Positions 10,478 to 49,460 of a DNA stretch of 64,000 nucleotides are shown one piece after another. Source of the DNA: a virus. Lineage: Duplodnaviria; Caudoviricetes. The notes under the pieces are model-generated. The model worked only from the letters and a program-made list of their open reading frames with translations. It ran no database searches and was not told the origin of the DNA. The DNA lies in IMG/VR virus record IMGVR_UViG_3300028048_000072, positions 1 through 64,000 of that record, one strand, 5' to 3'. Position 1 is the first letter of the stretch. The number at the start of each line of letters is the position of its first letter. The position numbers were made by a program, and so were the translations under genes.

Positions 10478-12244
10478 TTATTTTCTAATATAAATTACTT
10501 TTGTAGTACCACAATTATAGATTCTATAAATTTTATTCTTGAAACAGATATTCTTTTCTGTATCATTTTCATCAAAATATTTTATAATTCCATTTTCATA
10601 CATTTTCTTTAATTTATTCTTTCTAAAATTACTTTTATGAATTCTTTTATCTTTTACTACAAAATAATAATTCGGTGAGTTTTCTTTTACAATTTTAAAA
10701 CCAACATTAAAATATCCTTTACCATTAAATAAAGATTTATCAATATAACTTACAATTTTATGACAATTATTTATTTTACAGAAATCTTTAATCAACTTTG
10801 AAAATCCACCGACCACTTGATAATTTAATTTAGTTGCCATTCTTGTTAATTCTGTATTTCCATCATGAAAGCCTTTTAATGTGATAGAAATCATCTGTAC
10901 AATTTCATTTTCATAAATAAGTGCATAAAATTTATTTGACCTACAATATCCTTGAATATGATTTTTATTAAGAAATTTTTTAGCATCTTTTCTAGTAATT
11001 TCTTTAAACTCACATTTTCTAGCAAATATTTTTCTTTTATAAATTCCCAATCTTGATGAAATTATTGATTTGCAAATATCTTTTTTATATATCCAATCAT
11101 CTTCAAAAATGTGAATTAAATCTATTCCTTTTTCCTTACATAATTTTGTTTTGTTTAAATGATAATTTTTATCTTTTCCTAGTTCATTATGCCATCTTAA
11201 TCCATTGAATTCTATAGCCAATTTTTTATTTGGAATATAAATATCTAATTCTTTAGGAGAGATTATTCTTTTACAATTTTTAATAATTTTATCTTTATAA
11301 ACAGATTTTACAAAATCAAATACTTCATTTTCTTCATAAGAAGTTCCACTCATTTCTGTTGTAGAAAAATACTCCTTTAATTTTTCAAAAGAATATTCAT
11401 CTACACAAAGATTATTTTTTATCATTATATAATTTAAATTCAATGATTTTATTGCTAAAGTAACAGTAGTTCTATCCTTATCAAAAATCTTTGATAATTC
11501 TGATGCAGAATATAAATTAGATTTATTTTTCATCAATTTTTCAATTCTGCTTTTATTTGCTTTATCCTTTATTTCTTGAAGTTGAAACGGATGTTCTACT
11601 CCATATTTTTCAAGATTATTTTTCTTTGTAAATTCTTTTCTATGAGAAATAAAATATTCCAATTTTTTAATATCTTCATCATGATAAAACGCATTGTGCA
11701 TTATATAAATTGGTTTAATTTTTAATTGCTTAAAATATTTTGTTATCAAACATCTATTTAAATTAAATTTTTTACATAATTGTCGATGTGATGTTAATTT
11801 TAATCCCAATTTAATTTCTTTTTCTTTTATCTTTTCATTTAAAATATTTTTATATCCATGAGTTTTATTTAATTTTTTCTGTAATTCATCTTGTTTTTCT
11901 TCATATTCTTCTTTCAATAATTTTTTTACAGAATCAAATTCATCTGCAGAAAAATAAATATTTCCATCTAACAAACATTCTTCACCACGAATGTTTAATT
12001 TCTTTAATCGTCTGTCTAATGTCGATTTATCAATATTTAATTTTTGGCAAATGTTTTTCTTAGTATATCTGTTTCTTATTTCTTTTTGTTTATCAATTTC
12101 TGATTTTATTTTTTCAAAATTAGATTCTGTTAATTCATAAGGTTTACATTTTAAAAAATGATTCAATGTTAATTTTGTTAGACCCGTTCTTCTTATAATT
12201 TCATTTTTAGATAAAAAAACATCTGATTTACAATCCATAACCAT
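10478..12244 (-). CDS. Free-standing Hef-like endonuclease: wHTH repeats + KYG repeat + PD-(D/E)xK nuclease + GNAT-like C-terminus (copy 1)
   Basis: ELDIYIPNKKLAIEFNGLRWH; ELTRMATKLNYQVVGGFSKL; SYIDKSLFNGKGYFNVGF; RIYNCG. Confidence 0.75.
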   Translation of the reverse strand: MVMDCKSDVFLSKNEIIRRTGLTKLTLNHFLKCKPYELTESNFEKIKSEIDKQKEIRNRYTKKNICQKLNIDKSTLDRRLKKLNIRGEECLLDGNIYFSADEFDSVKKLLKEEYEEKQDELQKKLNKTHGYKNILNEKIKEKEIKLGLKLTSHRQLCKKFNLNRCLITKYFKQLKIKPIYIMHNAFYHDEDIKKLEYFISHRKEFTKKNNLEKYGVEHPFQLQEIKDKANKSRIEKLMKNKSNLYSASELSKIFDKDRTTVTLAIKSLNLNYIMIKNNLCVDEYSFEKLKEYFSTTEMSGTSYEENEVFDFVKSVYKDKIIKNCKRIISPKELDIYIPNKKLAIEFNGLRWHNELGKDKNYHLNKTKLCKEKGIDLIHIFEDDWIYKKDICKSIISSRLGIYKRKIFARKCEFKEITRKDAKKFLNKNHIQGYCRSNKFYALIYENEIVQMISITLKGFHDGNTELTRMATKLNYQVVGGFSKLIKDFCKINNCHKIVSYIDKSLFNGKGYFNVGFKIVKENSPNYYFVVKDKRIHKSNFRKNKLKKMYENGIIKYFDENDTEKNICFKNKIYRIYNCGTTKVIYIRK

Positions 12245-12302
12245 ACCTCACAATTCGGCAAAAGAAGTACAGTTAGCCGAATTGTAATTCAGATGCCTTA
12301 TA

Positions 12303-12480
12303 TTTATATTAAATTAAGTTTGGTGAACTACGCACCGCCTTTTAAGGCGGTGGCTTTTTGTTTTCGCTTCAACGGCTCAATTTGCATAACCAATCGACTA
12401 GCAATTGATTGTGTAGTGACTGATACCTCAGCGGAGGCTTGTTCCAAGCACTCAGTTCTTTTAGTCGAACCAAACAGTTT
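12303..12480 (-). ncRNA. Predicted TnpB omegaRNA/reRNA; guide approximately CAAACTTAATTTAATATAAA
   Basis: TnpB reRNAs are known to overlap the tnpB 3' end and right end, with the guide taken from flanking DNA. Hairpin 12333..12352 and the TTCAC end are seen; the 5' boundary is approximate. Confidence 0.55.
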
Positions 12481-13617
12481 TACATTTTTAGAAGCATGAA
12501 CATCCCTATCTCTTGAATATCCGCAATCACAAACATAAGTTCTTTCATCAAGTGTGACCATATTCAGACATCCACAATTAGGACAAAATTTAGTTGTAGG
12601 TAGCCATTTGGAAATTTTGTAACTTCTTCCACTCTTTTCAAGAGCAACAAGTTTTCCTTTAACTCTACCTAAGCAAGATGATTGTACTTGTCTTCCAAAA
12701 GAAAATCCACATTTTTTCATCTGCTTATTTTTCTTCCATTTTGTAATCTGCTCATCTTGAAAATAAATTACATCATAATTTTTAAGAAGATGAGAAACAA
12801 TCTTATTTGCAACATCATCTTTTTGATTAGATATATGTTCATACTCCTTCTGAATTTGATTAAGCAATTTGTAATAACGCTTTGAACCTTTTTGTTTCTT
12901 GTGCAACTGTCGTTGCAAATACTTCAAGTATTCAGTTTCTTGCTTATTACAATCAAACTTTTCTCCATCAGAAGTTGTTATTGCAGTCTTAATGCCAAAA
13001 TCAAGACCAACTGTTTTATTTGTTTTTATTACATTACTTTCTTTAGGAAAGAATACAGTAACCATTATATAAAATCCACTAGATTTACGAATTAAATTCG
13101 CATTTGCTATCTCAAAATTAGGAATATTTATAAACTGTTCCAATCCGTAAACTGATAATTTCCTAAACATAGGAATTGAAACTGTTTTAGATGATTTTAT
13201 TTTTAACATTCCTGTACGAAGATAGATTCTATTTACACTCTTTCTGAATTTTAACGCACCAACTTGAATTCCTTTCTTTTTTGCTTTTGAAAGATTACAA
13301 ATGTCAGTTTTTACAGAATTTACTAATTCTTGATGTACTCCAGTCTGCAATGTAATTTTCCGTTCGGCATTGTTTCCATCCTTGTCTTTATTTGTTACAG
13401 TTCTATGGTCTTTATAATTATAATTAAAAATATCATTTGAACCAATTACATCATTAATTACCCACTTGGCTTGTCTAAAGCAATCGTTTAATTTTTGAAA
13501 ATCTTCTTTAGAAGTATGATGACAATTAATCTTCAACTCAAATACTTTCAGATATTGAGTTTTTCTTTTAAGATAAGTTTCTTTATGACTTTGTTTAATT
13601 TTCTCGTTCTTTGTCAT
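12328..13617 (-). CDS. tnpB: RNA-guided nuclease TnpB
   Basis: RuvC-I VGLDFGIK, KKQKGSKRY bridge region, CPNCG...CDCG zinc finger, RuvC-III DRDVHASKN. Confidence 0.9.
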   Translation of the reverse strand: MTKNEKIKQSHKETYLKRKTQYLKVFELKINCHHTSKEDFQKLNDCFRQAKWVINDVIGSNDIFNYNYKDHRTVTNKDKDGNNAERKITLQTGVHQELVNSVKTDICNLSKAKKKGIQVGALKFRKSVNRIYLRTGMLKIKSSKTVSIPMFRKLSVYGLEQFINIPNFEIANANLIRKSSGFYIMVTVFFPKESNVIKTNKTVGLDFGIKTAITTSDGEKFDCNKQETEYLKYLQRQLHKKQKGSKRYYKLLNQIQKEYEHISNQKDDVANKIVSHLLKNYDVIYFQDEQITKWKKNKQMKKCGFSFGRQVQSSCLGRVKGKLVALEKSGRSYKISKWLPTTKFCPNCGCLNMVTLDERTYVCDCGYSRDRDVHASKNVKLFGSTKRTECLEQASAEVSVTTQSIASRLVMQIEPLKRKQKATALKGGA

Positions 13618-13702
13618 ATTTCTTTATTAAGATAATTACCCCTTTAATAAAACTTTTCACATATTGTATAGTAATATAGTTAAGATTGCAAGTATGATTT
13701 TA

Positions 13703-13746
13703 CAACAATTCATATTCCACCCTTTAGGGTGGAATATGAATTGTTG
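13703..13746. repeat. Perfect 21-bp inverted repeat (IS left-end hairpin and/or tail tube terminator)
   Basis: CAACAATTCATATTCCACCCT-TT-AGGGTGGAATATGAATTGTTG. Confidence 0.85.
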
Positions 13747-13770
13747 ATTTTATATAAAAAATCAACTCAA

Positions 13771-14325
13771 TTATGCAGAAGGAAATTTAACATTCATACA
13801 ATCAAGTGTTACTGAACATTCAATAGGTTCACCATTACTTTCGTCAAATGAAATAGCATCAATAGATTTTGGATAAGCACCTTGCCCAACCCATATATTA
13901 TTTGGTGTCGCAGTTTCGGTAAGATTAGTCAATGACCATACTTCAACATCTGTACGGAAAGTAGAACCACCTCCGCCTTCACCGTTAGCACCACTATCGC
14001 TACCCATTGCCATAGTTTGATTGTTTTGAACATATTGCATCCATGTCATAAGAGAATTATAACATCTCCAATATTTATCTGCTCTAAATGTGAATGAAAT
14101 TTCAGGTGTAAAACTCATTACCCCGCTAGGTCTATTAAATTTACGACCACGTTTATTAATTTCGTATGTTTCGATTTCATAACTAGGTAAATCTACAGTT
14201 AAAACTCGCATATTAATTTCTGCAATATTTGTACCTAAAAAAGAAAAAGCGGGAATCACAATTTGAAAATGATTTTGCAAAGCATCTTCACCCATTGTTG
14301 CTAATACATCTATCATGTGTGCCAT
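13771..14325 (-). CDS. Tail tube protein (gp19-like)
   Basis: 'NHFQIVIP...VDLPS...ISFTFR...LMTWMQ...GAYPKSIDAISFD...ECSVTL'; TAACTAT and AAGGAG upstream. Confidence 0.85.
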   Translation of the reverse strand: MAHMIDVLATMGEDALQNHFQIVIPAFSFLGTNIAEINMRVLTVDLPSYEIETYEINKRGRKFNRPSGVMSFTPEISFTFRADKYWRCYNSLMTWMQYVQNNQTMAMGSDSGANGEGGGGSTFRTDVEVWSLTNLTETATPNNIWVGQGAYPKSIDAISFDESNGEPIECSVTLDCMNVKFPSA

Positions 14326-14341
14326 ATAAATCTCCTTATTA

Positions 14342-14359
14342 TAACTATAAATATAGTTA
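14342..14359. promoter_or_regulatory. Palindromic pair of putative late promoters (TAACTATA-AA-TATAGTTA)
   Basis: TAACTAT on the plus strand faces the nuclease gene; TAACTAT on the minus strand faces the tail tube gene. Confidence 0.6.
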
Positions 14360-14368
14360 ATTTTTCAA

Positions 14369-16105
14369 TTGAATAATCCAACTTTTTCTAATAAAATTAT
14401 TTGTGGAGGAAATATGAAAACTGTATCTGAAATAAGAAAAATCATTTATGATTTACATGGTATAAAATTATCTTATGATGAAATTTGTAAACATTCAAAA
14501 TCAGTAAATCGAATTAGTAGAAAAGTAACATATATTAACGATGATAAAGATGTAATTTCATATTTCTCACTACCTTCTACAGAAAGAAGAAAAATAACTT
14601 GTATTAAAAAATACGGTGAAAATTATATTTCTGATTTTTCCAATAAATCAAAAAATGGAATGATTACAATTGGTGATATTGCAAATGAATTACATAAAGA
14701 TAAAGATTCATTGTTAAAAATATTAAATCATATTAACATAACACCTTTAATTAAAGGAAATAAAAAATTATACAACATTGATGTTATAGATAAAATTAAA
14801 AACTTTATAAATGAACATCCAAACTATTCATCAGAATTTAGAAATGAAAGTATTTATAAAAAATATGGAGTAAATAACGCATCTCAATCTAAAGAAATAA
14901 AAGATAAAAAGAAACAATCATATATTAATCATTATGGATGTGATAATTATATGAAAACAGATGAAGCAAAAGAAAAATTTTCATCTATCGCAAAAAATAA
15001 TTCTGAATCAAGAAAAATTAAAAGAGAAGAAAATTTAGCAAACCTTATAAAAGAATATGAAGATAAAAACGATTGTTTATCCTCTATCCATATAAATGAA
15101 AAATATAATTTAAATTACAATAAATATGGACACATGGCTTTAAAAATTAGAGAATCCAATGTCGATTATACAGTTTATAAAAATAATATTTTTGTAAAAA
15201 ATACGGATATTGATAAATTATTATCTTACATTAGAATCTGTAAAGATTTTCATGTTTCTTCATCAGAAAAAGAAGTTTGTGATTTTATAAAATCTATTTA
15301 TAGTGGTGAAGTTTTAGAAAATAATCGCCACATTATAACACCATCTGAACTTGATATTTTTATTCCAAATAAAAATGTAGCCATAGAATATAACGGATTA
15401 TATTATCATTCTATGATTGATAAAAATTATCATTATAATAAATATGAAAAATGTAAAGATAAAGGAATAAGATTAATTCAATTTTTTGAAGATGAATGGA
15501 TTTTAAAAAATAAAATCTGTAAATCTATAATTAAATCTTCTCTAGGAATTTATGAAAGAAAAATATTCGCTAGAAATTGCAAATTTGAAGAAATAAATTC
15601 TGAAACATATAAATCATTTTTAAATGAAAATCACATTCAAGGATGTGTAAATTCTAAATGGATGTATGGTTTATTTTATAATAATGAACTAGTACAATGC
15701 ATAGGTTTAGGTGCATCACGATTTAAAAAAGGTGAAATTGAACTTCATAGAATGTGTACAAAATTAAACACTCAAATTGTAGGTGGATTTTCTAAATTAA
15801 TGAAAAACACATGTAAAGAATTAAATATAAATAAAGTATATTCTTATGTGGATTTAAGATTATTTAATGGTAAAGGTTATGAATCTAGTTCATGGAAAAT
15901 TGTAGGAAGAAGTAAACCTAATTATTTTTATATTCCTAAAGGATGTAATATTAGAGAATCAAGAATTAAATATCAGAAACATAAATTAAATAAAATACTA
16001 AAATCTTTTGATAAAAATTTATCTGAAAAAGATAATATGTTTAATAACGGATACCGAATAATCTATGATTGTGGAAATCTTAAAGTGAAATATATTAATT
16101 CTTAG
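14369..16105 (+). CDS. Hef-like endonuclease with GNAT-like C-terminus (copy 2); likely start 14414
   Basis: ELDIFIPNKNVAIEYNGLYYH; ELHRMCTKLNTQIVGGFSKL; SYVDLRLFNGKGY; KYG repeats; GGAGG before ATG 14414. Confidence 0.75.
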   Translation: MNNPTFSNKIICGGNMKTVSEIRKIIYDLHGIKLSYDEICKHSKSVNRISRKVTYINDDKDVISYFSLPSTERRKITCIKKYGENYISDFSNKSKNGMITIGDIANELHKDKDSLLKILNHINITPLIKGNKKLYNIDVIDKIKNFINEHPNYSSEFRNESIYKKYGVNNASQSKEIKDKKKQSYINHYGCDNYMKTDEAKEKFSSIAKNNSESRKIKREENLANLIKEYEDKNDCLSSIHINEKYNLNYNKYGHMALKIRESNVDYTVYKNNIFVKNTDIDKLLSYIRICKDFHVSSSEKEVCDFIKSIYSGEVLENNRHIITPSELDIFIPNKNVAIEYNGLYYHSMIDKNYHYNKYEKCKDKGIRLIQFFEDEWILKNKICKSIIKSSLGIYERKIFARNCKFEEINSETYKSFLNENHIQGCVNSKWMYGLFYNNELVQCIGLGASRFKKGEIELHRMCTKLNTQIVGGFSKLMKNTCKELNINKVYSYVDLRLFNGKGYESSSWKIVGRSKPNYFYIPKGCNIRESRIKYQKHKLNKILKSFDKNLSEKDNMFNNGYRIIYDCGNLKVKYINS

Positions 16106-16168
16106 TCCATTTTACTTTCATTATACACAATCATAAATACGATAAAATCCGTTATCTTTCATATTAGA
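16095..16168 (-). pseudogene. Relic C-terminal fragment of a further Hef-like paralog
   Basis: Minus strand reads SNMKDNGFYRIYDC-(frameshift)-IMKVKWTKN*, matching the family C-terminus NMENNGYYRIYDCGTIKVKYIKS. Confidence 0.7.
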
Positions 16169-16189
16169 AAGAAGAAAATGAATTGCATT

Positions 16190-17797
16190 TTAAATTTTTA
16201 ACTTTAATCTTATTTTACCACAATCCCAAATCCAATTAATACCATTTTTCGCCATATTTTCAAATTCAGTTTCATTTTTATTAAAATATTTTAATTCACC
16301 AATTTCTACTTTTCTTTTAATTTTATTTTTTTGATAATTCATTCTATTAACTTTTCTATCATTAACAATATACCAATATGTAGGTGGACATTCCATATCA
16401 AATTTAAATCCTACTTGTTCATAACCTTTACCATTAAACCATGCTCTAAATACATAAGAATTCATTTCAGTTATATCAAATGTTTTTATGGAATAATTTA
16501 CTAATTTTGAAAACCCACCCATAACTTGACAATTTAATTTTGTAGCCATTCGATTTAATTCCCATATATTATTTAATCCATTATAATTAATTCCTACAGA
16601 TTGAACTAATTCATCATTATAAAATAATCCTATATAATGAGATGCTTTAGCGAAACCTTGTAAATGATTTTCATCCATAAAATTTTTATAAACATTAAAG
16701 TTCAATTCTTTTATTTCACATTTTCTCGCAAATATTTTTCTTTCATAAATTCCCAATGAACTTGCAATCATGGATTTCACAATATCCTTATTATAAAGCC
16801 AATCATCTTCGTATACATGAATTAATCGAATATTCTTTTGTTCACAAAGTTTTGTTTTATTAAAATGATAATTTTTATCTTTAAATTTATTACTATGATA
16901 ATAAACACCATTAAATTCAATTGCTACATTTTTATTAGGAACATAAATATCAAGTTCTAATGGAAATATTACCTTTCTATCATTTTCAACAATTTTATCA
17001 TCATAAATAGATTTAATAAATTCTAATAATTCTTTTTCTACATTAGAAACTCTTTTAGAAACAGATATTTTTATATAATCTTCTATTTTATATAATTCTG
17101 ATTCATGTATATAATATGAATCAGAAATTTTCATAATATTAATATTTTTAATTTTAAGAATATCTAACATATTATCATAACATCTTTCATATTTTTGACA
17201 AAGTTCTGATACAGAAAATAAATTTTCAAATTTTTTTAATCTAATTTTCTTATTTTCATTTTTTACAAATTTAGATTTATCAATGATTTCTTTATTTTTC
17301 ATTGGATTATCCACACCATATTTTTTAATCATCGATTTTTTATGAATTTCTGATGAAAAAGAACCGTATGTTTTATCACCATATTTTTTCAATTTAGTAT
17401 TAAACATTTTATTTAAAATATCTTTATTTTGAGAAGGATTTTCTACACCATGATTTTTTAAACTTGTAAATTTCTTTTTATTCTTAATTTCATTAGATTG
17501 AGAAATATTATTTACACCATATTTTTCTTTAACTGTATTATCTGCTTTTTCTTTAACAGATTTTAATTTCATAGGATTATCTACACCATATTTTTTCAAA
17601 AAAGTTTGTTTTTGAAAAAATGTTCTTGTGTTTGGATTTTCTTTAATAAAAAGATTTAATTTATCAAAATCTTCTTGTGAAAAAATTAAAAATTTTCCTT
17701 TTTTAATGAGTTGTATATTTAAATATTCTCTTACCTTTTTTAAAGTTGCTTTATTGAGATTAAAATATTGATTTACATACTTTACTGTATAATCCAT
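16190..17797 (-). CDS. Hef-like endonuclease with GNAT-like C-terminus (copy 3)
   Basis: Five KYG-type repeats; ELDIYVPNKNVAIEFNGVYYH; ELNRMATKLNCQVMGGFSKL; WIWDCG. Confidence 0.75.
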   Translation of the reverse strand: MDYTVKYVNQYFNLNKATLKKVREYLNIQLIKKGKFLIFSQEDFDKLNLFIKENPNTRTFFQKQTFLKKYGVDNPMKLKSVKEKADNTVKEKYGVNNISQSNEIKNKKKFTSLKNHGVENPSQNKDILNKMFNTKLKKYGDKTYGSFSSEIHKKSMIKKYGVDNPMKNKEIIDKSKFVKNENKKIRLKKFENLFSVSELCQKYERCYDNMLDILKIKNINIMKISDSYYIHESELYKIEDYIKISVSKRVSNVEKELLEFIKSIYDDKIVENDRKVIFPLELDIYVPNKNVAIEFNGVYYHSNKFKDKNYHFNKTKLCEQKNIRLIHVYEDDWLYNKDIVKSMIASSLGIYERKIFARKCEIKELNFNVYKNFMDENHLQGFAKASHYIGLFYNDELVQSVGINYNGLNNIWELNRMATKLNCQVMGGFSKLVNYSIKTFDITEMNSYVFRAWFNGKGYEQVGFKFDMECPPTYWYIVNDRKVNRMNYQKNKIKRKVEIGELKYFNKNETEFENMAKNGINWIWDCGKIRLKLKI

Positions 17798-17922
17798 ATC
17801 TAACTCCTTAGAAAAAATAAGGAAGAATGAAATTAATCATTCTTCCTTATGTATGTTTCACAACATTCTATCAAAGTTTAAGTTATCACTTGATTTTAGT
17901 CAAGTGATAATTTTTAATTTGA

Positions 17923-19461
17923 TTACGAATTAGGTGATAAGTTTTCAAGAACAAGTTTTGTTGCAAATTTCTTATTGTTTGTTTTAACATCAAGATACAT
18001 TCCTAATCCCATCTGTGAGTTGAAGTTCTTCAATTCAATTGGGTTAGTAGAAATTGCACCACCAAAACTTCCGACTGATACTGGTGCATCAACATTCTGT
18101 CCTTGTACAGCCTTACCAAAGATGTATGCTTCACCACTATTAGTGATTACATTTGGTGGAGCAACAAATACACCACGACCTGCGATTTCACCAACCTTGA
18201 AGATACCAACTTTTGAAGATGGTGTACTAGCAACAAACTGACGATGTTTTGTAAGATATGAATAAGTATCGAAATCACAAACAATGTTAGAAGTATCTGC
18301 ATAACGACCAAGAGCCTTATATGTTTTACCTTCTGCACTGATAATAGCATTAAGTACAGACTGTGCATGTTCATAAGAACTATCACTACCCGCACTAGCG
18401 AAATCTGTATCAAATGTTACTGCTTGTGTCCAACTTGATGCCATAATACCCTTACGGATACATGTTTCATCAAATGCCTTACGGAATTCATCACCTGCAC
18501 CTGCAATAAGCATATCCTTAGCACCAATTCCAAGTTTAGAATTCATCAAATCTTCACTAAATCTTGTCCATTCTACAGCGAGTGGATAGAGTTGAGCAGA
18601 GAACATGTATTCAACCAAAGAAAGAAGTACAGAACCTGTCTTATTGAAAAGGTTTGTTGCTTCAAAGTCATAAGCATATTCTACTTCAACAACATCAGTT
18701 GCAGAAAGTGCAGAACTGAATGTTACAGAAACGGCACCACTTGTATAGTTGATTGTACCACTTGAAAGAGTTGCACCAACCAAAGCACCCGCACCGTTAT
18801 CTGCACCAACTTGTTCACCGTTTACAAGTACCATTACTTTGAATGGAAGAAGTGGAACGTTTGAAAGAGTTGCAGAATAAGTAGTATGTGAACCACCATC
18901 TGTAAGTGCTTCACGTTCAAATGTTGAAGGATAACGACCTTCACCATATTTTTCATAAACTACATCGCCTGCAGTAGCACCACGTTCTGTTGAACCAATA
19001 ATTGTTTCAAGTTTGTAAATGCTATCTTTCATTGAAGTCATACCCCAAACATCGAATACATCTTGTGCGATGTTGTTTGTATAACCAATACGAACTACTT
19101 TTACGATATCAGTAGGTAACATCAATCCCATTGCACCGCCTGTCTGCATTGCTTCAGTCATTCTTGATTCATTCAATGTTTTCATTGTTGCAATCTGTTG
19201 TGCGTTTTGTAAAAGAATTGGGTTATTATAAGCATTGCGTTCTGTGTTTTCAAGCATACAAAGAAGTGCTTCTGCCTTTTTTGCATCCTTATCGAACATT
19301 TCATCAAGTTTACGTTCTGAAAGAGCCAAACCTTTTGATTTAGCAAACTTTTCTTTCATTTTCATAATCTTTGATTCACGTTCTGACATTTTTTCATTAT
19401 AAACTTCACGAGCCTTACTTTCAGACATTCGCATTACTCTACGAAAACCATTATTTTCCAT
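17923..19461 (-). CDS. Major capsid protein (gp23-like HK97 fold) with a beta-rich insertion domain
   Basis: Charged cleavable-type N-terminus; 'IAQDVFDVWGM'; 'YPLAVEWTRFSEDL'; 'KVGEIAGRGVFVAP'; strong RBS and TAACTAT at 19620..19625. Confidence 0.9.
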   Translation of the reverse strand: MENNGFRRVMRMSESKAREVYNEKMSERESKIMKMKEKFAKSKGLALSERKLDEMFDKDAKKAEALLCMLENTERNAYNNPILLQNAQQIATMKTLNESRMTEAMQTGGAMGLMLPTDIVKVVRIGYTNNIAQDVFDVWGMTSMKDSIYKLETIIGSTERGATAGDVVYEKYGEGRYPSTFEREALTDGGSHTTYSATLSNVPLLPFKVMVLVNGEQVGADNGAGALVGATLSSGTINYTSGAVSVTFSSALSATDVVEVEYAYDFEATNLFNKTGSVLLSLVEYMFSAQLYPLAVEWTRFSEDLMNSKLGIGAKDMLIAGAGDEFRKAFDETCIRKGIMASSWTQAVTFDTDFASAGSDSSYEHAQSVLNAIISAEGKTYKALGRYADTSNIVCDFDTYSYLTKHRQFVASTPSSKVGIFKVGEIAGRGVFVAPPNVITNSGEAYIFGKAVQGQNVDAPVSVGSFGGAISTNPIELKNFNSQMGLGMYLDVKTNNKKFATKLVLENLSPNS

Positions 19462-19664
19462 AATTTTAATCTCCTATATAAAAATTAATTGAATAAAATC
19501 TTAAAAATCGTTTTATATAACCTAACGAATTATAAAAATTGAAAAAACCATATTACTTTTTCACAAAATTTACTTCATATAAACCTAGTAAATTTAGATT
19601 CTTTTCCAATATAATAAAATAGTTAATATTTAAATTTCTAACTTATAAAAAAATTAACATAATT

Positions 19665-19703
19665 AAAAAAAATCCCTTTACTAAAATAAAGGGGATTTAT
19701 ATA
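19665..19703 (-). repeat. Direct repeat copy A (terminator hairpin) flanking nuclease gene 19704..21362
   Basis: AAAAAAATCCCTTTACTAAAATAAAGGGGATTTATATA; matches 21382..21420 except for one C. Confidence 0.9.
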
Positions 19704-21362: not shown

Positions 21363-21381
21363 ATAAATATCTTAGTCAATG

Positions 21382-21420
21382 AAAAAAATCCCCTTTACTA
21401 AAATAAAGGGGATTTATATA
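21382..21420 (-). repeat. Direct repeat copy B (sheath gene terminator hairpin)
   Basis: AAAAAAATCCCCTTTACTAAAATAAAGGGGATTTATATA; perfect AAATCCCCTTTA/TAAAGGGGATTT stem. Confidence 0.9.
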
Positions 21421-21440
21421 ACATTCTTTTTTTTTAATTA

Positions 21441-38287: not shown

Positions 38288-38292
38288 ATTAT

Positions 38293-38610: not shown

Positions 38611-38648
38611 ATTAAAAAATCCTCCAAAAGATTATATTATAATAGTTA

Positions 38649-38677: not shown

Positions 38678-38682
38678 GTAAG

Positions 38683-39948: not shown

Positions 39949-39959
39949 TGGATTTTTCA

Positions 39960-39988
39960 TTGACTTTTTATGTTCTCATAAATATACT
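39960..39988 (+). promoter_or_regulatory. Sigma70-type promoter TTGACT-17-TATACT
   Basis: Upstream of the helicase gene. Confidence 0.7.
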
Positions 39989-40025
39989 CTTATATAAGAT
40001 TTTATAAGTGTGAGGATAATGTAAT

Positions 40026-42617
40026 ATGAGTAAACTTCAATTGAGAAGTTTGGAAGAAATTAAAACAAAATATCCTTATTTGGATATTAATGATAAGTAT
40101 AAACAGATTTTTAATATTCTTGAAAATACAAATGATATGTTGAATATTGTAGGGGAAGCGGGTTGTGGAAAAGCACAACCTTTAGATACAATTATTCCTA
40201 CACCTAATGGATATAAAAGATTTGGTGATTTGAAAGTAGGTGATTACGTTTTTGACAGAAACGGAAAACCAACAAAAGTAATCGGTGTTTATCCTAGAGG
40301 TAAACTTGATTTATATAAGGTTACTCTTTCAGATGGTAGAGAAACATTTTGTAACGATGACCATTTGTGGTCTTATTATACATCTAGGGGAAATCTTAAA
40401 ACTGTTTCACTTAGAGAAATGATTGATAAAGGAATCATTAAAGAAACTCGTTCTAAAAACGATAATCGTATAAGAAAAAATTGTAGATTTAAAATTCCTA
40501 CACATAATCAAGTTGAATTTAATTTTCATGATAAATTACCAATTGACCCTTATGTGATAGGGGCATTTATCGGAAACGGATGTAATTTAGAAAAACAATT
40601 ATCATTTTCTAGTAATGATGAATTTACTGTATCGGAATGTTCTAAACTTTTAAATTTTGATTACGATAAATTATCTGATAAAAATTATACATGGGTCTTT
40701 AGATATAAAGAAAAATGTGAAAATCCTAATAAAATTAGACCTCAAACATTGGAAATTTTTTCTGAATTTAAAAATGAACTTTGTGTTAAATCTAATTTAA
40801 AAAGAATACCACAAATATATAAAACTTCATCGATTAAAAATCGATTGTCTTTAATTCAAGGTCTGTTTGATACAGATGGTAGTATTACAGAAAGTGATGG
40901 AAGAATGAATTTATCATATTCTACAACTTCTATAAATTTAGCAAACGATATTAAGGAAGTTCTTTTATCATTAGGATATGTATCATCAATTCACCTTTAT
41001 AAAAGAGATAATAAAAACGATTGTTATACTCTTAATGTAAACATTAATGATTTTGAAAAATATAATTTTTTTAGACTTCCTAGAAAGTTAGAAAAAATAA
41101 AATGTAGAAATAAAAATAGAAATTATAATATGGTTGGAATTAAAAAAGTTACTCCAATGAACACAAAAGTTGAAATGATGTGCATTAAAGTAGATAATGA
41201 TGAAGAATTATATCTTACAAATGATTACATTGTAACACATAACACTACACTACTTGAAATCCTAAATTTTGCCATTAAAGGTAATGTTATGATTTGTGCG
41301 AGTACGGGTGTTGCTAGTTCATTACTTTCATCTGCAGATGGTGTTTTTGCTACTACAATTCATTCTGCTTTTAATATTGCACCACAGACAATTTATTCTA
41401 ATAGTTTTCCTAAATTAAATTTTCTTAAAAAAGAAGTAATTAGTAATACAGATTGTTTGATTATAGATGAAATGTCTATGGTAAACGCATCTTTATTTGA
41501 TTATCTTATTAATTTAATCAAATATACTCGGCATGGTAGTTTACCTAGAATTATTTTGTTTTCTGATATTTTGCAGTTAGAGCCTGTAATTGGAAATAAT
41601 GATGTTGTAACCAATTATTTTAAAAACCTTTATAAAGGAAATGTTTTTTATTTTAATTCAAATGCTTTTAAGGATTTAAATTTCAAAACAATTCTTTTGA
41701 ATAAAGTTTATAGACAGAATGGAGATAATGAATTTAAAGATATTCTCAATAGAATTCGTGTAGGAAAAGCAACAAGATATGATTTGGATAAATTAAATAC
41801 TAGAGTTGCTACAGAAGATGAAGAATTGTATTGGGAAATTGACCATCCAACTTCATTAAAAATTGTTACTACCAATAAGAACGCAGAAAGATATAATAAT
41901 ATGCGATATGAATTATTGGAAGGTGAAGAATTTATATATAGAGCAAATATGACAGAATCGTTTGTTGCATCTGATTTATATAAAAGTGGTTTATACCCTG
42001 AAGAAATTAAATTAAAAATTGGTGCATCAGTAATGATTTTGAAAAACGATATTAATAAAGAATATGTAAACGGTGATATGGGTATCGTTGAATCATGTGA
42101 TGTTGAAAATAGAACTGTTCGTGTAAAACTTAATAGTGGTAAACTTGTTACCGTTCATGAATATGAAACAGATGAATATGACTATTATGTTGAAAAAAAT
42201 GATGATGGTAGTACATCAGTATATACTAGAGTTAAATCTTCATATATAAATGTTCCGTTAAAATTAGCTTATGCTACAACAGTTCATAAATCACAAGGTT
42301 TGACATTAGATTATGGATGTTTTGATAAGGGAAGTTGGGTAACTAATGCTAGTGTTTATGTTGCTTTATCAAGATTTAAAAGATTAGAAGGATTCATTTT
42401 AAGTAAACCATTGGAAATGAAAGATATTCTGATTAATGATGAAGCATTGAGTTTCTTAAACAATGTAGAATCAGAAAATAATTCAATATTGGATGATAAA
42501 GAATATGTTGAAGAAAAAGAAGAAAAGAAAGATATAAGAAGTGAATTTTTATCTAAATTGGAAAGTTTAGATGAAGGTAAATTAAATAAACTGATGAAAT
42601 TAATAGACAATGTATAA
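40026..42617 (+). CDS. Pif1/RecD-like SF1B helicase containing an intein
   Basis: GEAGCGK|TT Walker A split by the intein; IIDEMSM; LNKVYRQ; LAYATTVHKSQGLTLD; YVALSR. Confidence 0.9.
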   Translation: MSKLQLRSLEEIKTKYPYLDINDKYKQIFNILENTNDMLNIVGEAGCGKAQPLDTIIPTPNGYKRFGDLKVGDYVFDRNGKPTKVIGVYPRGKLDLYKVTLSDGRETFCNDDHLWSYYTSRGNLKTVSLREMIDKGIIKETRSKNDNRIRKNCRFKIPTHNQVEFNFHDKLPIDPYVIGAFIGNGCNLEKQLSFSSNDEFTVSECSKLLNFDYDKLSDKNYTWVFRYKEKCENPNKIRPQTLEIFSEFKNELCVKSNLKRIPQIYKTSSIKNRLSLIQGLFDTDGSITESDGRMNLSYSTTSINLANDIKEVLLSLGYVSSIHLYKRDNKNDCYTLNVNINDFEKYNFFRLPRKLEKIKCRNKNRNYNMVGIKKVTPMNTKVEMMCIKVDNDEELYLTNDYIVTHNTTLLEILNFAIKGNVMICASTGVASSLLSSADGVFATTIHSAFNIAPQTIYSNSFPKLNFLKKEVISNTDCLIIDEMSMVNASLFDYLINLIKYTRHGSLPRIILFSDILQLEPVIGNNDVVTNYFKNLYKGNVFYFNSNAFKDLNFKTILLNKVYRQNGDNEFKDILNRIRVGKATRYDLDKLNTRVATEDEELYWEIDHPTSLKIVTTNKNAERYNNMRYELLEGEEFIYRANMTESFVASDLYKSGLYPEEIKLKIGASVMILKNDINKEYVNGDMGIVESCDVENRTVRVKLNSGKLVTVHEYETDEYDYYVEKNDDGSTSVYTRVKSSYINVPLKLAYATTVHKSQGLTLDYGCFDKGSWVTNASVYVALSRFKRLEGFILSKPLEMKDILINDEALSFLNNVESENNSILDDKEYVEEKEEKKDIRSEFLSKLESLDEGKLNKLMKLIDNV
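40173..41243 (+). mobile_element. Intein (357 aa, Ala1, LAGLIDADG endonuclease), class-3-type
   Basis: AQPLDT...DHLW...MMCIKV...IVTHN|T; LAGLIDADG motifs GAFIGNG and GLFDTDG. Confidence 0.9.
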
Positions 42618-42628
42618 AGGAGAAAAAT

Positions 42629-42952: not shown

Positions 42953-43052
42953 AAAAAATAATTTGACTTTTTTTCTAAAATAAGCAATAATATCGTTGTT
43001 CGTTGAACAATGTAATAAATTAAGGTCTTAGACCAATTAAGGAGATTAGCGT

Positions 43053-44426: not shown

Positions 44427-44446
44427 GATTAATTTAAAATAATCTG

Positions 44447-44478
44447 AAAGGAGATAGAAAAAATCTATCTCCTTTTTA
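44447..44478 (+). terminator. Intrinsic terminator
   Basis: AAAGGAGATAGA...TCTATCTCCTTT stem followed by a T tract. Confidence 0.7.
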
Positions 44479-44500
44479 TTTTTAACTTGAAAATTTTTAA

Positions 44501-46582
44501 ATGATTGTTTATCCTAAATGTATGGATGAAATTGTAAAAAAAGGACATGGTTATTATCTCAATGATTTTAAATTTTACACAAAAGAAAGTATTAGTAAAA
44601 TTTTACATAAAAAGAACACAACGATTCAATTGATTATAGATTATTTAGGAATAAAATCATATCCAAATAAATGGAATAAAAATTTATATACAGAATCAGA
44701 TTTTTGTCAAATACAAGAATTTGTGAAGGAAAATCCAAACACAAAAGTTTTTTTCACCAAACAAACAAATCTTAAACGATATGGTGTGGATTCTTTTACT
44801 AAAACTGAAAAATTTAAAAATGAAATTAAAAACACTTGTATGAAGAAATATGGAGTAGAACATTATTCTAAAACTAAAGAATATAAAGATAAATGTAAAA
44901 AAACAAATTTAAAGCGTTTCGGATGTGAATATTCTTTGCAGAGTGAAGAAGTTAGAAATAAAGGAAAACTAACTAATTTTGAAAAATACGGAAATGTAGT
45001 TTATAGTAAAACTGATGATTTTAAAGAAAAATATAAAAACGCAATGATTAAAAATTATGGTGTAGAACATTATTCTCAAACAGATGAATTTAAAGAAAAA
45101 TGTAAAAAAACATCATTAGAAAGATATGGTGAAGAACATTATATTAACGTTGAAAAAATTAAAAATACATCTATTAAAAAATATGGAGTAAGTAGTTATA
45201 CAAAAACACAAGAATATAAAGATAAAGTAAATAAAACCAATTTAGAAAAATATGGAACTTTATGGACATTACAGAATAAAGAAATTAGAAATAAAATTAA
45301 AGAAACAAATTTAAAAAAATATGGTTGTGAAAATCCATATCAAGCAGAAGAAATAAAAGAAAAAATAAAGAAAACAAATTTAAACCGTTATGGTGTAGAA
45401 CATCCATCTCAATCTGATGAAATACACAACAAAATGTTTTCTCATTTAAAATCAAAGAATGACGGTTATTTATCTAAAGCGGAAAAGAAATTTGCAGAAA
45501 TGCTTACTAATAGAAATATAAATTTTAAGCATGAGTATTTTTATAACAATAAACATTGGGATTTTGCTATTTTTGTAGATAATAATTTAAATACTTTGGT
45601 TGAAATTGATGGCGAATATAATCATGGTTTAATTTCTGATTTTAACGGTGTTCATGTTAAAGACCAAGAAGATTATGGTAGATTTTCATTGATAGATGAA
45701 AATATAAAGTTTATAGCAATTGATTCTAAAAAGATTGATGAAAGTTTTTCTCTTTTATTTGAAACATTAAATATTGATTATGAAAAATGGATTAATAATA
45801 TATTAAATTCACTTCCTGAAGAATTCCCATATCATGAATATTCTGATAAAAGAATGATGAATGATTGGAAACATTTATGTGAATATGAATATAAAGTTGG
45901 TCAAAAATTGGGATATTCTATTATAAATAATTTTCATAAATCAATTTATTCATGTAGTATTAAAAATAAACCATCTCCATTAAACGCATGGAATGATAAA
46001 AAATTATTGGAAAAATGCGTAAGAAACAGATTTATTTATAAATCGATTTTAAGTTCACAAAACATTGCAGATGGATTTAATGTTTGCAAAATTGCACCAA
46101 AGATTTCAATATTTAATCCTAGTTTAGCAAGATATTTAACAGAAAAATATCTGAATGAGTATGATATTATTTTTGACCCTTTCAGTGGATTTAGTGGAAG
46201 AATGTTAGGTGTATGTTCTTTAGGTAAAAAATACATTGGTCAAGATATTAATGAAACTACTATAAAAGAAAGCGAATTAATTAAAAATAAATTTAATTTG
46301 GATGCTACATTGAAAATAAAAGATGTTTTTGATTCTTATGGAGAATATGATTGTTTGTTTACATGTTCCCCTTATTCTGATAAAGAAAATTGGAATAATA
46401 AAAATCAGAAAATATTATTTTGTGATGAATGGATAGATGTTTGTTTAAATCATTTCAAGTGCAAATCTTATTTATTTGTTGTAGATAATACAGAAAAATA
46501 TAAAGATTATATTGTAGAAGAAATTGATAACATTTCACATTTTAATTATAATAAAGAATATGTAGTTTATATAACTATATAA
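44501..46582 (+). CDS. wHTH + 10 KYG repeats + PD-(D/E)xK nuclease + amino-DNA methyltransferase fusion
   Basis: SKAEKKF...WDFAIF...VEIDGEYNH nuclease; IFDPFSGFSGR (SAM-binding motif I) and FTCSPY (motif IV variant). Confidence 0.75.
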   Translation: MIVYPKCMDEIVKKGHGYYLNDFKFYTKESISKILHKKNTTIQLIIDYLGIKSYPNKWNKNLYTESDFCQIQEFVKENPNTKVFFTKQTNLKRYGVDSFTKTEKFKNEIKNTCMKKYGVEHYSKTKEYKDKCKKTNLKRFGCEYSLQSEEVRNKGKLTNFEKYGNVVYSKTDDFKEKYKNAMIKNYGVEHYSQTDEFKEKCKKTSLERYGEEHYINVEKIKNTSIKKYGVSSYTKTQEYKDKVNKTNLEKYGTLWTLQNKEIRNKIKETNLKKYGCENPYQAEEIKEKIKKTNLNRYGVEHPSQSDEIHNKMFSHLKSKNDGYLSKAEKKFAEMLTNRNINFKHEYFYNNKHWDFAIFVDNNLNTLVEIDGEYNHGLISDFNGVHVKDQEDYGRFSLIDENIKFIAIDSKKIDESFSLLFETLNIDYEKWINNILNSLPEEFPYHEYSDKRMMNDWKHLCEYEYKVGQKLGYSIINNFHKSIYSCSIKNKPSPLNAWNDKKLLEKCVRNRFIYKSILSSQNIADGFNVCKIAPKISIFNPSLARYLTEKYLNEYDIIFDPFSGFSGRMLGVCSLGKKYIGQDINETTIKESELIKNKFNLDATLKIKDVFDSYGEYDCLFTCSPYSDKENWNNKNQKILFCDEWIDVCLNHFKCKSYLFVVDNTEKYKDYIVEEIDNISHFNYNKEYVVYITI

Positions 46583-46598
46583 AAAAGAAGGTGATTAT

Positions 46599-46928
46599 AT
46601 GAAAGATACTTTTAATATTTCAAAAGATTATATTATTGAAGGAATTTATCTTAAAAAAGGTTCTAAATTATCGTTAGTTGAAGAAGTTGAAATTGGTTCA
46701 GAAGAATCTAGGGAAGAATTGGAATTAAAGGCTCAACCTCTCATTGATTTGGCAATTGAAAACAATATTATTGAAGAAAATGATTTTGATAAGATTGAAA
46801 AAATAACTGATTTTTACATTACAAAATATTTGGAAAATCCACAGAACGTACCTACATTAGAAGATGTAAAGAAATTGATTTCTGAAATCGATGATTGTGA
46901 TGTTATTAGAAATGAATTCATTGATTAA
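46599..46928 (+). CDS. Acidic late protein sharing an N-terminal module with 27281..27706
   Basis: KDYIIEGIYLKKGSKLSLVE versus KNYFIEGRLVKKGTRIMLE; TAACTAT at 46572. Confidence 0.7.
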   Translation: MKDTFNISKDYIIEGIYLKKGSKLSLVEEVEIGSEESREELELKAQPLIDLAIENNIIEENDFDKIEKITDFYITKYLENPQNVPTLEDVKKLISEIDDCDVIRNEFID

Positions 46929-46948
46929 ATTTTTTAAATAATAAAAAA

Positions 46949-46991
46949 TTGACATTGAAAACTTTCTGTACTATATTTGTACAGAAAGTTT
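46949..46991 (+). promoter_or_regulatory. Sigma70-type promoter TTGACA-17-TATATT overlapped by a 13-bp hairpin
   Basis: AAACTTTCTGTAC-TATATTT-GTACAGAAAGTTT. Confidence 0.7.
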
Positions 46992-47010
46992 ATTTTTTAT
47001 GGAGGATTAA

Positions 47011-48102
47011 ATGACTATCGAAGAAAAGAAAAAGAAGTTGGCACTTTTAAACAAGTCTTTTGAAAAGAAGTACAATTCTAAAATGATTGTAAAAGGAAGC
47101 GATGTTCCAAAAGTAGAATTCTATTCAACGGGAATTCCAAGTATTGATACTATTTTAGGTGGAGGATGGGCAAAAAAACGTATTGGTTCAGTTTATGGCG
47201 AATTCTCTAGTGGAAAAACAACTCATTTGTTGCAGACAATTGCATACAATCAGAAAATTGACCCCGATTTTATGGCACTTTATGTAGACCAAGAAAACGC
47301 ATTGGATATTGATTATTGTGAAAAATTGGGAATCGATATGGAAAGATTTCAAGTAATTGAATCTGATAAAGCAGAAAAAAATCTTGATGCTTTAAGAGCA
47401 ACAATTGAAGAAGGATTTTATAATATCATTGTAATTGATAGTACAAATGCATTAGTACCTACTACAGAATTGGAAAAAGATGTATCTTCTACGGCAAGTA
47501 TTGGTACAGTTGCAAAACTTCTTTCTGTATTTACACGAATGGTTGTAGGAATGTTGAATAAATCTGAATCTAAAACTGCATTGATTTGTATAGAACAGAC
47601 TAGGGAAAAAGTCGGTGCGATGGCGGTGAACGGTATTATTCCACAAGTTATTGGTTGTGGTAAAGCCGTAGGATTTTATTGTTCACAAAGATTGGAATTT
47701 AAGAAAGGAAAACCAATTACTGAAGGAGATGAAACAATTGGAAATACTACAAAAGTTAAATGTGTAAAGAATAAAGTTTATACACCTTTTGCTAAAGTTG
47801 AAGTGCCTATGGTATTTGGTAAAGGATTTGATGTTGAAATGGATAATCAGATGTTCATTATTGATAGTGGTATTATTGAACGTATTAATGCACAAAAATG
47901 GTCATATACTGCTAATAACGGTGAAGTAATTGAAATTCGTGGTCAGAAAAATATCATCCCTACACTTAAAGAAAAAGGTCTTTTTGAAGAAGCATTTGAA
48001 AACGCAAAACAAAAAGTATTTGCTCATACTGATACAAAATCAGAATATGAAGGAATTGATTTGGAAGAAGAACAGAATAAAGAAATTGTTATAGAAGAAT
48101 AA
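47011..48102 (+). CDS. recA: RecA/UvsX recombinase
   Basis: STGIPSIDTILGGG, YGEFSSGKTT, YVDQENALD, IVIDS, KCVKNKVYTPF. Confidence 0.95.
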   Translation: MTIEEKKKKLALLNKSFEKKYNSKMIVKGSDVPKVEFYSTGIPSIDTILGGGWAKKRIGSVYGEFSSGKTTHLLQTIAYNQKIDPDFMALYVDQENALDIDYCEKLGIDMERFQVIESDKAEKNLDALRATIEEGFYNIIVIDSTNALVPTTELEKDVSSTASIGTVAKLLSVFTRMVVGMLNKSESKTALICIEQTREKVGAMAVNGIIPQVIGCGKAVGFYCSQRLEFKKGKPITEGDETIGNTTKVKCVKNKVYTPFAKVEVPMVFGKGFDVEMDNQMFIIDSGIIERINAQKWSYTANNGEVIEIRGQKNIIPTLKEKGLFEEAFENAKQKVFAHTDTKSEYEGIDLEEEQNKEIVIEE

Positions 48103-48176
48103 TTTATTAATGTCTATGATTTAGGCGAAAAACCTAAATCATAGACATATTAAAATTATTTCACAAGGATTAAGTT

Positions 48177-49460
48177 ATGAAAAATTATCTAAATAAAACA
48201 GAATTGCGTAAAAAATTTAAAATATGTGCCGATACTTTAGATAAAATATTAAATTATCTTAATTTGCCTTTTGAAATTAGAATGACAAAAAATTATAAAC
48301 AAGTACCTTATTATAATCAAGAAAATATCAATAAAATTGAAAAATTTATAAAAGAAGAATACAATTCAAATTTTTTCTTTTCATTATCGTGGAGTAAAAA
48401 AGGTTGGAGTATTCCCATGATTGCAAAAGAATTAAATTGTGATAGATGTAAAATTGAAAGAATGATAAAAATATTAAATCTACATTATGAAAAAGGAAAA
48501 GGAAAACAGAATTATTATACAGATAATGAAAAAGATTTAATTGTGAACGGTCTAAATTCTAATATAAGAAAAGAATTTCAAAACTTATATTATGTTCATA
48601 CTTTAGCAAAATATTTTAATGTTGATGATTCTACCATAAATCATTGGATTGATTTTTTAAATTTGAATTATCAAATAAATAACAAAGGAAAATATTTAGA
48701 TGAATATGAATTTGATAAATTAAAAAATTATGTAAATAATCATGATATTCATAAGGACATATGGAAAAGTAAAAAACAAAAATATTTTTATAACGGATAT
48801 ACTTTATTATCTTCATTAAAAGAAAATTATAATATATCAAACATACCGTATAATTATTGTGATTATTTAGGAATTAAAGTTTATGATTTTCCAAATCATT
48901 TAAGTGGTAATATTTCACATTATATCAAGAATAAAGATGTTGAAAAATTAATAAATTATTTAAATTCTATGAATTCTAAAGAAAGACAATTACATATGAT
49001 GAAAATTACAAATAATAAGAAATTTGGATGCGATTATTATTCTCAATCATCTAACGCAAAACGAAAATCTAAATGGTTATTTGATAATATTAATTTTGAT
49101 TCAAAGTGGGAAATTTATTATTACTTTTATTTAAAAAACAATAATATAAATTTTCAAATGCAAATTCCTATGGATTATTATGAAGATAATGGTAAACATA
49201 GAGTATATAAGTGTGATTTTTATTTAATTGATTCTGATGAATATATTGAAATTAAAAATCCAAAATGTTTAAATGAGAAAGGTGAACTTATTGAATTTTA
49301 TAAAAGTGATTCTAAATCGAAAATAAATGCTAAATATAAATGTATGATAGAACATAATGTAAAAATAATTTCTAAGGAAAAAATAGAATTTTATATGGAA
49401 TATTTTAAGAAAAATTGTAAAATTCCAATAATTGATGCAAGAAAAAAATCAAACGAATAA
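48177..49460 (+). CDS. wHTH repeats + KFG repeat + PD-(D/E)xK nuclease (no modifier domain)
   Basis: About four wHTH-like repeats; KKFGCDYYSQS; FDSKWE...YKCDFYL...YIEIK. Confidence 0.7.
   Translation: MKNYLNKTELRKKFKICADTLDKILNYLNLPFEIRMTKNYKQVPYYNQENINKIEKFIKEEYNSNFFFSLSWSKKGWSIPMIAKELNCDRCKIERMIKILNLHYEKGKGKQNYYTDNEKDLIVNGLNSNIRKEFQNLYYVHTLAKYFNVDDSTINHWIDFLNLNYQINNKGKYLDEYEFDKLKNYVNNHDIHKDIWKSKKQKYFYNGYTLLSSLKENYNISNIPYNYCDYLGIKVYDFPNHLSGNISHYIKNKDVEKLINYLNSMNSKERQLHMMKITNNKKFGCDYYSQSSNAKRKSKWLFDNINFDSKWEIYYYFYLKNNNINFQMQIPMDYYEDNGKHRVYKCDFYLIDSDEYIEIKNPKCLNEKGELIEFYKSDSKSKINAKYKCMIEHNVKIISKEKIEFYMEYFKKNCKIPIIDARKKSNE

Follow-up and report, generated by a model that had tools for sequence, protein, structure and literature searches.

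Hef-type homing endonuclease genes of an uncultured myovirus pair a Vsr-like nuclease with a predicted Mom-like GNAT domain

Introduction

Free-standing Hef genes of bacteriophages are in practice annotated only as homing endonucleases, and the C-terminal half of their products is left unexplained. Taylor et al. 2011 listed the bacteriophage Hef proteins in the EDxHD family of nucleases (PMC3239194). Annotated copies lie beside conserved genes, often several to a genome; Dickeya phage LIMEstone1, for instance, has four, one of them adjoining the tail tube gene (PMC3296691). Here we describe six genes in a 64,000-nucleotide stretch of viral DNA, positions 1 to 64,000 of IMG/VR record IMGVR_UViG_3300028048_000072 (hereafter, the window). 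Four of these genes, named by their first coordinates (10478, 14369, 16190 and 19704), are assigned by sequence to the Hef family, and their products are predicted to end in a domain related to Mom of phage Mu. The fifth, 44501, has a predicted amino-methyltransferase in that place, and the sixth, 48177, has no modification domain. We document their architecture, folds, family memberships and active-site conservation, together with turnover and decay among relatives.

Fusions of this kind have been described under another name. Iyer et al. 2021 reported fusions of a restriction endonuclease (REase) with Mom in jumbo phages, including five momylating enzymes in PA5oct, and proposed that momylation protects phage DNA and the nuclease attacks host or superinfecting DNA (PMC7824862). 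That paper treats the REase-Mom fusions as conflict systems akin to restriction and does not present them as homing endonucleases (PMC7824862). When PA5oct was searched with the nuclease and GNAT module of the window proteins, exactly five matches were returned, each spanning the whole module, with identities of 36-43% and E values of 1e-40 to 1e-52. By this sequence comparison, we assign the PA5oct fusions to the same family as the window Hef genes. The cut-and-mark idea considered below is a rediscovery of a prediction in print since 2021 (PMC7824862), and our contribution is one well-documented case of it, together with a parallel version that has a methyltransferase; the principle itself is not new. 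We found no open paper in which Hef, by that name, is connected with Mom. The donor for Mu Mom is Gly-tRNA(Gly), from which a glycyl group is transferred to adenine N6 in double-stranded DNA (PMC13219725). As this chemistry was solved only recently, DNA marking by Hef proteins has become directly testable, and the window offers a clear case.

Four Hef paralogs with modular N-terminal arrays

A first-pass annotation of the window, made from its letters alone, had singled out the six open reading frames (ORFs) as a family built from shared N-terminal parts. Their coordinates and strands match, the translations were checked, and the winged helix-turn-helix (wHTH) strings and the C-terminal motifs ELNRMATKLNCQVMGGFSKL and SY.....F.GKGY that it quoted are all present. 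The four Hef genes are laid out as follows, with domain boundaries for the first taken from domain hidden Markov models (HMMs):

10478-12244, minus strand: Hef gene 1, 588 amino acids (aa), matching phrog_3339 'homing endonuclease' at E 4e-99; 3-4 wHTH units (~11348-12217), one DUF7487 repeat (11552-11620), Vsr-like nuclease (11045-11356), Mom-like GNAT domain (10490-11038)
14369-16105, plus strand: Hef gene 2, 578 aa, TTG start, on the strand opposite to its neighbours; wHTH unit (14675-14842), 3(-4) DUF7487 repeats, nuclease (15248-15547), GNAT domain (15554-16096)
16190-17797, minus strand: Hef gene 3, 535 aa, of which residues 245-535 were modelled; wHTH-1 (17612-17779), five DUF7487 repeats (17252-17605), wHTH-2 (17060-17206), nuclease (16751-17056), GNAT domain (16196-16744)
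19704-21362, minus strand: Hef gene 4, 552 aa, TTG start; wHTH-1 (21102-21275), three DUF7487 repeats (20838-21095), wHTH-2 (20565-20717), nuclease (20286-20588), GNAT domain (19713-20276)

These four genes are full-length paralogs (37-44% identity, E 1e-93 to 1e-109). All of them match phrog_3339 end to end, with E values from 2e-98 to 5e-106. In tblastn searches, the best matches were unannotated megaphage records, and annotated Hef genes of Campylobacter phages CP220/CPt10, Klebsiella phage RaK2, K64-1, Acinetobacter phage 133 and others were aligned with 30-35% identity, the alignments covering 85-100% of the query (85-91% for CP220, CPt10, RaK2 and 133). On this evidence, we classify 10478, 14369, 16190 and 19704 as Hef-family genes encoding predicted free-standing homing endonucleases. 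They share full-length architecture and sequence family with the known Hef genes of phage U5, CP220/CPt10, RaK2, 133 and LIMEstone1, and like these they are free-standing genes with conserved neighbors, present several times in one genome. They differ from them in residing in an uncultured myovirus of 26% GC with no close GenBank relative, and in having their own numbers and orders of wHTH and DUF7487 units. In BLAST comparisons with the four paralogs, 44501 has only the N-terminal modules in common and 48177 only one wHTH-type stretch.

The repeat of ~23 aa, recognizable by its 'KYG' core, is Pfam DUF7487. Motif counting gave the same copy numbers as the first-pass annotation, namely 1, 3(-4), 5, 3, 10 and 1 in gene order from 10478 to 48177. 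In the same order, an iterated HMM detected 3-4, 1, 2, 2, 1 and 3-4 copies of the ~55-aa wHTH unit. The modular, shuffled N-termini proposed from the window are real and extend through the family: array make-up across 90 family proteins ranges from 0-10 repeats and 0-4 wHTH units, and some members carry NUMOD3, zinc ribbons or DUF723 in place of wHTH/DUF7487. Recent tandem duplication was considered as a source of the four copies and rejected, given their 37-44% identity and the presence of only one ortholog in a related phage. No extra copies were found elsewhere in the 132.7-kb contig.

Hef gene 2 is the sole plus-strand gene in a minus-strand run from ~8600 to 38600, and it meets Hef gene 3 tail to tail. 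This orientation is consistent with independent insertion.

A Vsr-like nuclease of the EDxHD type

The nuclease was traced through the family rather than through single proteins. Searched with phmmer, the full-length 16190 protein returned nothing among Protein Data Bank (PDB) sequences at E <= 1, whereas a profile of 88 family members matches I-Bth0305I (PDB 3r3p) at E 1e-6. Relatives also match the Pfam families Vsr and REase_MTES_1575. All four window copies retain the nuclease residues E10, D39, E50, H57, H67 and K70, as do 81-88 of the 88 members; by this pattern, the nuclease of the four paralogs looks catalytically intact. The earlier designation as a PD-(D/E)xK nuclease stood in part: the restriction-endonuclease fold was found, but the site in the four paralogs is Vsr-like/EDxHD, and the canonical arrangement (E...D...ExK) occurs only in 48177.

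I-Bth0305I, the EDxHD prototype, has a homologous nuclease in which the E, D, N/D and H positions correspond, and its D222 aligns with the histidine H67 of the Hef proteins. Both have N-terminal modular DNA-binding motifs. Such motifs are expected of EDxHD homing endonucleases and are present in the Hef proteins as DUF7487 and wHTH units, which are predicted to bind DNA. I-Bth0305I differs in that it is intron-encoded, has its nuclease at its end and is without a GNAT domain.

The C-terminal domain resembles Mom

To describe the C-terminal half, we built an AlphaFold2 (AF2) model of the 16190 protein, covering residues 245-535, from an 88-sequence alignment. The model has a mean predicted local distance difference test score (pLDDT) of 95.9 and a predicted template modelling score (pTM) of 0.91, and in it the nuclease and the C-terminal domain form one predicted rigid unit. 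A Foldseek search of the PDB ranks Mom of phage Mu first (8bv8_A, E 1.7e-7), ahead of ordinary GNAT acetyltransferases, and finds more than 170 GNAT chains at E <= 1e-3. VIA-align gave Z scores of 12-14 to many GNATs over model residues 112-291. Mom is the longest of these alignments (158 residues, Z 12.3, root-mean-square deviation 4.3 Å), about 28 residues longer than those of ordinary GNATs. In the model, helices 241-254 and 267-273 lie between strands 237-240 and 277-280, a candidate counterpart of the helical (HTH-like) insertion between the last strands that is essential in Mu Mom. Structural comparison alone establishes the predicted domain as a GNAT and does not establish it as Mom; the pointer specific to Mom comes from sequence.

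Sequence profiles connect the domain to the Mom family by several routes. The Pfam Mom family (PF25680) is matched at E <= 0.01 by 15 of the 88 homologs, two of which (P0096 and P0124) exceed its curated cut-off, compared with one of 88 for Acetyltransf_1. An ordinary acetyltransferase identity was rejected on these counts. Compared by hhalign with an alignment of 35 true Mom proteins, the Hef profile matched over 131 columns (E 2.7e-5, 74% probability); with Mu Mom as a lone sequence the match is weak (E 0.14), and the 88-member profile did not reach the Mom chain among PDB sequences. An HMM of the GNAT region alone matches bona fide Mom proteins down to E 3.5e-5 in hmmsearch. Fold and profile links together bear out the GNAT/Mom-like reading of this domain in the first-pass annotation, and we have good confidence that the C-terminal domain of the Hef paralogs is a remote Mom-family GNAT domain, as judged from sequence and model.

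Mom residues were mapped onto the family through the profile-profile alignment. The Hef motifs NH(L/I)QG, ELxRM, GGFSK and GKGY align with Mom H58, R111, S124 and Y159, respectively. Mu Mom cannot do without R111 and S124, and its H58A and Y159A variants are strongly impaired (PMC13219725). The equivalents of these four residues are kept in 88, 87, 80 and 88 of the 88 members, in that order, and in all four window copies. An invariant GG-x-SK loop occupies the place of RNSES in Mom. Because of this replacement, we consider both aminoacyl-tRNA and acyl-CoA possible as donor. The expectation in the first-pass annotation that such a domain should bind acyl-CoA is out of date, as the donor of Mu Mom is a charged tRNA (PMC13219725). 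By alignment, the Hef GNAT site appears conserved yet not identical to that of Mom.

Overall, the Hef domain and Mu Mom (8bv8) share the predicted GNAT fold and, as far as the model and the profile alignment indicate, extra helices between the last strands and the four conserved active-site equivalents, at ~14-15% identity. Mu Mom stands alone, whereas the Hef domain is fused to a nuclease and DNA-binding arrays.

A predicted amino-methyltransferase takes the place of the GNAT domain in gene 44501

The gene at 44501 combines the same N-terminal modules with another pair of domains:

44501-46582, plus strand: repeat-nuclease-methyltransferase gene, 693 aa; one wHTH unit (44588-44758), ten DUF7487 repeats (44765-45442), Vsr-like nuclease-like region (~45464-45760), helical linker, class-I amino-methyltransferase (~45881-46579)

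The C-terminal 254 residues, searched alone, score 27.7 bits against PF01555 (N6_N4_Mtase), for which the cut-off is 26.7. An AF2 model of residues 320-693 (pLDDT 89.7) best matches exocyclic-amine methyltransferases in Foldseek and VIA: METTL5 (Z 15.8), Trm14 (Z 15.1) and Trm11 (Z 14.6). The match lists for this model consist of methyltransferase-domain matches. Motif I, DPFSGFSGR, is invariant in 42 relatives of 44501. The fold matches, the PF01555 score and the invariant motif I agree with the S-adenosylmethionine (SAM)-dependent amino-methyltransferase that had been proposed for this slot.

Motif IV of the family reads T-C-[P/S]-P-Y, with invariant C, P and Y and a variable position that is P in 22 of the 42 relatives and S in 20; the TCSPY of 44501 is a normal family variant. 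The motif departs from (D/N/S)PP(Y/F/W) in having Cys at the usual D/N/S position, and the target atom therefore cannot be inferred from it. An enzyme with this motif would be abundant in phages, as the 44501 architecture defines a family of more than 1000 proteins with identities of 55-80%, many at 55-63%.

In hhalign, the nuclease-like region of 44501 matches the Hef profile at 99.4% probability with matching E/D/E/H, a score that comes partly from the shared repeats. The E, D, E and H positions are invariant in the 42 relatives. An HMM restricted to the Hef nuclease matches members of the 44501 family weakly (E ~2e-4, Z=1000) and gave no match to the 44501 protein of the window itself. The proposed homology to the Hef nuclease is based on the hhalign result and the E/D/E/H pattern. 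A protein 79% identical to 44501 (P0127) is encoded at the same place in another phage, after an ortholog of the 457-aa gene. Gene 44501 looks like one for a retained bifunctional enzyme, not a decaying parasite.

The closest described analogs of 44501 are the Type IIG/IIC enzymes BpuSI and MmeI, which likewise hold a nuclease and an amino-methyltransferase in one polypeptide, and BpuSI is among the Foldseek matches of the 44501 model. Several features set 44501 apart from them. Its nuclease is Vsr-like, its motif IV is TC[PS]PY and not (D/N/S)PPY, and recognition would apparently occur via the N-terminal repeat array instead of a C-terminal target recognition domain. Its closest methyltransferase folds are the RNA amino-methyltransferases METTL5 and Trm11/Trm14.

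Gene 48177 encodes a putative nuclease with an empty slot

The sixth gene has an array composed mostly of wHTH units:

48177-49460, plus strand: wHTH-array nuclease gene, 427 aa; 3-4 wHTH units (48201-48986), one DUF7487-like repeat (49008-49076), REase-fold nuclease (~49062-49457)

Its C-terminus shows the E...D...ExK pattern with weak family support (DUF1064, E 0.021; phrog_190, E 2e-4). Among ESM Atlas proteins, its look-alikes are TnsA-like and DUF7487 nuclease clusters, and matches to PDB sequences were at chance level only. The nuclease assignment of 48177 is the weakest of the six. The gene is without a modification domain, and its earlier description as a nuclease with an empty slot is fair, with the qualification that the nuclease is not of the Hef type.

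Turnover and decay among relatives

Among its homologs, the 16190 protein is closest to P0007, which is encoded on contigs L002-L005 of a related phage. That phage likewise carries four Hef genes, grouped about its capsid and portal genes, and only one of them is orthologous to a window copy. The 16190/P0007 orthologs are 69.5% identical in amino acids and 78% in nucleotides. The adjacent capsid proteins are 54.8% identical in amino acids, and the portal genes 46% in amino acids and 66% in nucleotides; the Hef ortholog is more conserved than either neighbour. Capsid and Hef genes form a linked pair in both genomes (window 16190-19461; L004 8306-11599), and the position of the pair relative to the portal gene differs. 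The conserved pair hints that the two genes moved together or that the Hef gene was transferred recently.

Decay is visible between near-identical strains. Compared with 99.98%-identical strains, L002 has a 1257-bp internal deletion in a 591-aa Hef gene (L004 13570-15360) beside the portal gene, and in L005 a 62-bp indel splits the corresponding gene. Relatives were also sought among viral contigs with the tail tube and UvsX-like proteins; none were found, nor was a clean empty site. As far as these sequences indicate, the turnover, the decay and the placement beside the most conserved genes are as expected of free-standing homing endonucleases.

Cutting, marking and alternative explanations

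The explanation towards which we incline, and which we hold to be somewhat probable, is that the Hef paralogs are selfish homing endonucleases in which the array places both the Vsr-like nuclease and an active Mom-type transferase, with the mark protecting the carrier. DNA modification, self-protection, homing and the steering of both activities by one array are what we infer beyond the architecture. The wHTH and DUF7487 array would give long, tolerant site recognition, and the Vsr-like (EDxHD) nuclease would cut DNA. The GNAT domain, most likely an active nucleobase acyl- or aminoacyl-transferase, would be brought by the same array to mark the carrier genome at or near the nuclease site. Co-infecting relatives whose DNA lacks the mark would then have it cleaved, and the Hef gene would be copied in during repair, along with its flanks. 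Gene 44501 would follow the same logic with an amino-methyltransferase instead of the GNAT domain, and 48177 would be a nuclease-only relative with shared N-terminal modules.

Several observations weigh against this explanation. Free-standing homing endonucleases are normally protected by target-site sequence differences, and a modifier is not required. Our analysis turned up neither a cleavage site nor a target or an empty site, and no modification experiment on any Hef protein was found in the literature. The four window proteins gave no match to PF25680 at E <= 0.1, and RimI and the Naa acetyltransferases reach slightly higher VIA Z scores than Mom. Mu Mom also needs D149 and R151 (PMC13219725), and the equivalent positions hold D in 43 and R in 36 of the 88 members, respectively. 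In the window, these positions read D/S (10478), D/R (14369), F/A (16190) and S/R (19704), leaving 16190 without both. Poor conservation at these two positions favors an explanation in which the Hef proteins are cut-only homing endonucleases protected by target-site differences, and the GNAT domain, exapted and non-catalytic, helps to bind or distort DNA, for example in base flipping or dimerisation. The DNA-binding cleft and modelled adenine flipping of Mu Mom (PMC13219725) suggest that a Mom-like fold could serve recognition alone, and the Hef protein of phage U5 has been described purely as an endonuclease cutting nrdB (PMC2988022). We nevertheless regard the cut-only explanation as unlikely, if deserving of serious weight. 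The 88 members have diverged, yet the four Mom active-site equivalents and the GG-x-SK loop hardly vary among them, which exceeds the needs of a DNA-contact surface. In the 44501 family, the same slot is filled by a predicted amino-methyltransferase whose SAM motif I is intact and whose motif IV is invariant, suggesting that the slot is enzymatic.

A further explanation overlaps with the one we favor and treats the genes as single-chain restriction-modification-like weapons instead of mobile genes. Modification by the Mom domain would extend broadly over the phage genome and guard it against host restriction as well as against the protein's own nuclease, and the nuclease would degrade host or superinfecting phage DNA. 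Iyer et al. 2021 stated this view for the same family (PMC7824862), whose identity was checked in PA5oct as described above. The occurrence of 44501 and P0127 at the same position in two phages, and the 55-80% identity within their family, also suggest retained function. Evidence from the Hef paralogs points the other way: one decays in near-identical strains, and the set of Hef genes changes from one related phage to another. The genes moreover adjoin those that are most conserved (capsid, portal, sheath, tube and UvsX-like), as is typical of homing elements, and their long modular arrays suggest rare long sites, not frequent restriction sites. On this balance, the weapon explanation appears to us rather improbable, somewhat more so than the cut-only one.

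Returning to selfish elements that both cut and mark, we tentatively propose, as a possibility that may well not hold, that Hef-type elements are single-chain 'homing restriction-modification' units, in which one array and a Vsr-like nuclease chassis would be combined with an interchangeable Mom-type acylase or amino-methyltransferase. If so, the Mom-type versions would be natural site-directed DNA hypermodifying enzymes with specificity set by the wHTH/DUF7487 array, and homing endonucleases would gain a route to self-immunity besides target-site polymorphism.

Genomic setting and neighboring genes

The contig of which the window forms the first 64 kb is 132,722 bp long and ~72% complete by estimate; at this size and completeness, it does not clearly qualify as a jumbo phage. 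The GC content of the window is ~26%, and megablast of positions 10000-22000 returned no GenBank phage match. Contractile-tail core genes identify the carrier genome as that of an uncultured myovirus. The first-pass annotation had placed the six genes between core genes, and the neighbors prove to be the following:

13771-14325, minus strand: tail tube gene (phrog_45 tail tube, E 8e-17), between Hef gene 2 (14369) and a TnpB-like gene
17923-19461, minus strand: major capsid protein gene, from tblastn to annotated major capsid proteins, with Hef genes on both sides
21441-23264, minus strand: tail sheath gene, directly upstream of Hef gene 4 (19704)
24151-26184: portal homolog
47011-48102: UvsX-like recombinase gene

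Two other genes of the window deserve mention. Between the tail tube gene and the Hef gene at 10478 lies a 429-aa TnpB-like gene (12328-13617, minus strand), which matches OrfB_IS605 (E 2e-14), a Cas12f1-like TNB domain (E 3e-9) and the transposase family phrog_506. Its presence therefore adds a second type of mobile element to the structural-gene block. At 40026-42617 (plus strand), an 863-aa ORF joins a Dda/PIF1-like helicase to an N-terminal region with a P-loop, whose PHROG matches are of terminase, primase and DnaC-like types. Two genes, one of 165 aa and one for a 523-aa PIF1 helicase, occupy the same position in a relative (L007 3845-5974), and the 863-aa ORF may represent a fusion or an insertion relative to that arrangement.

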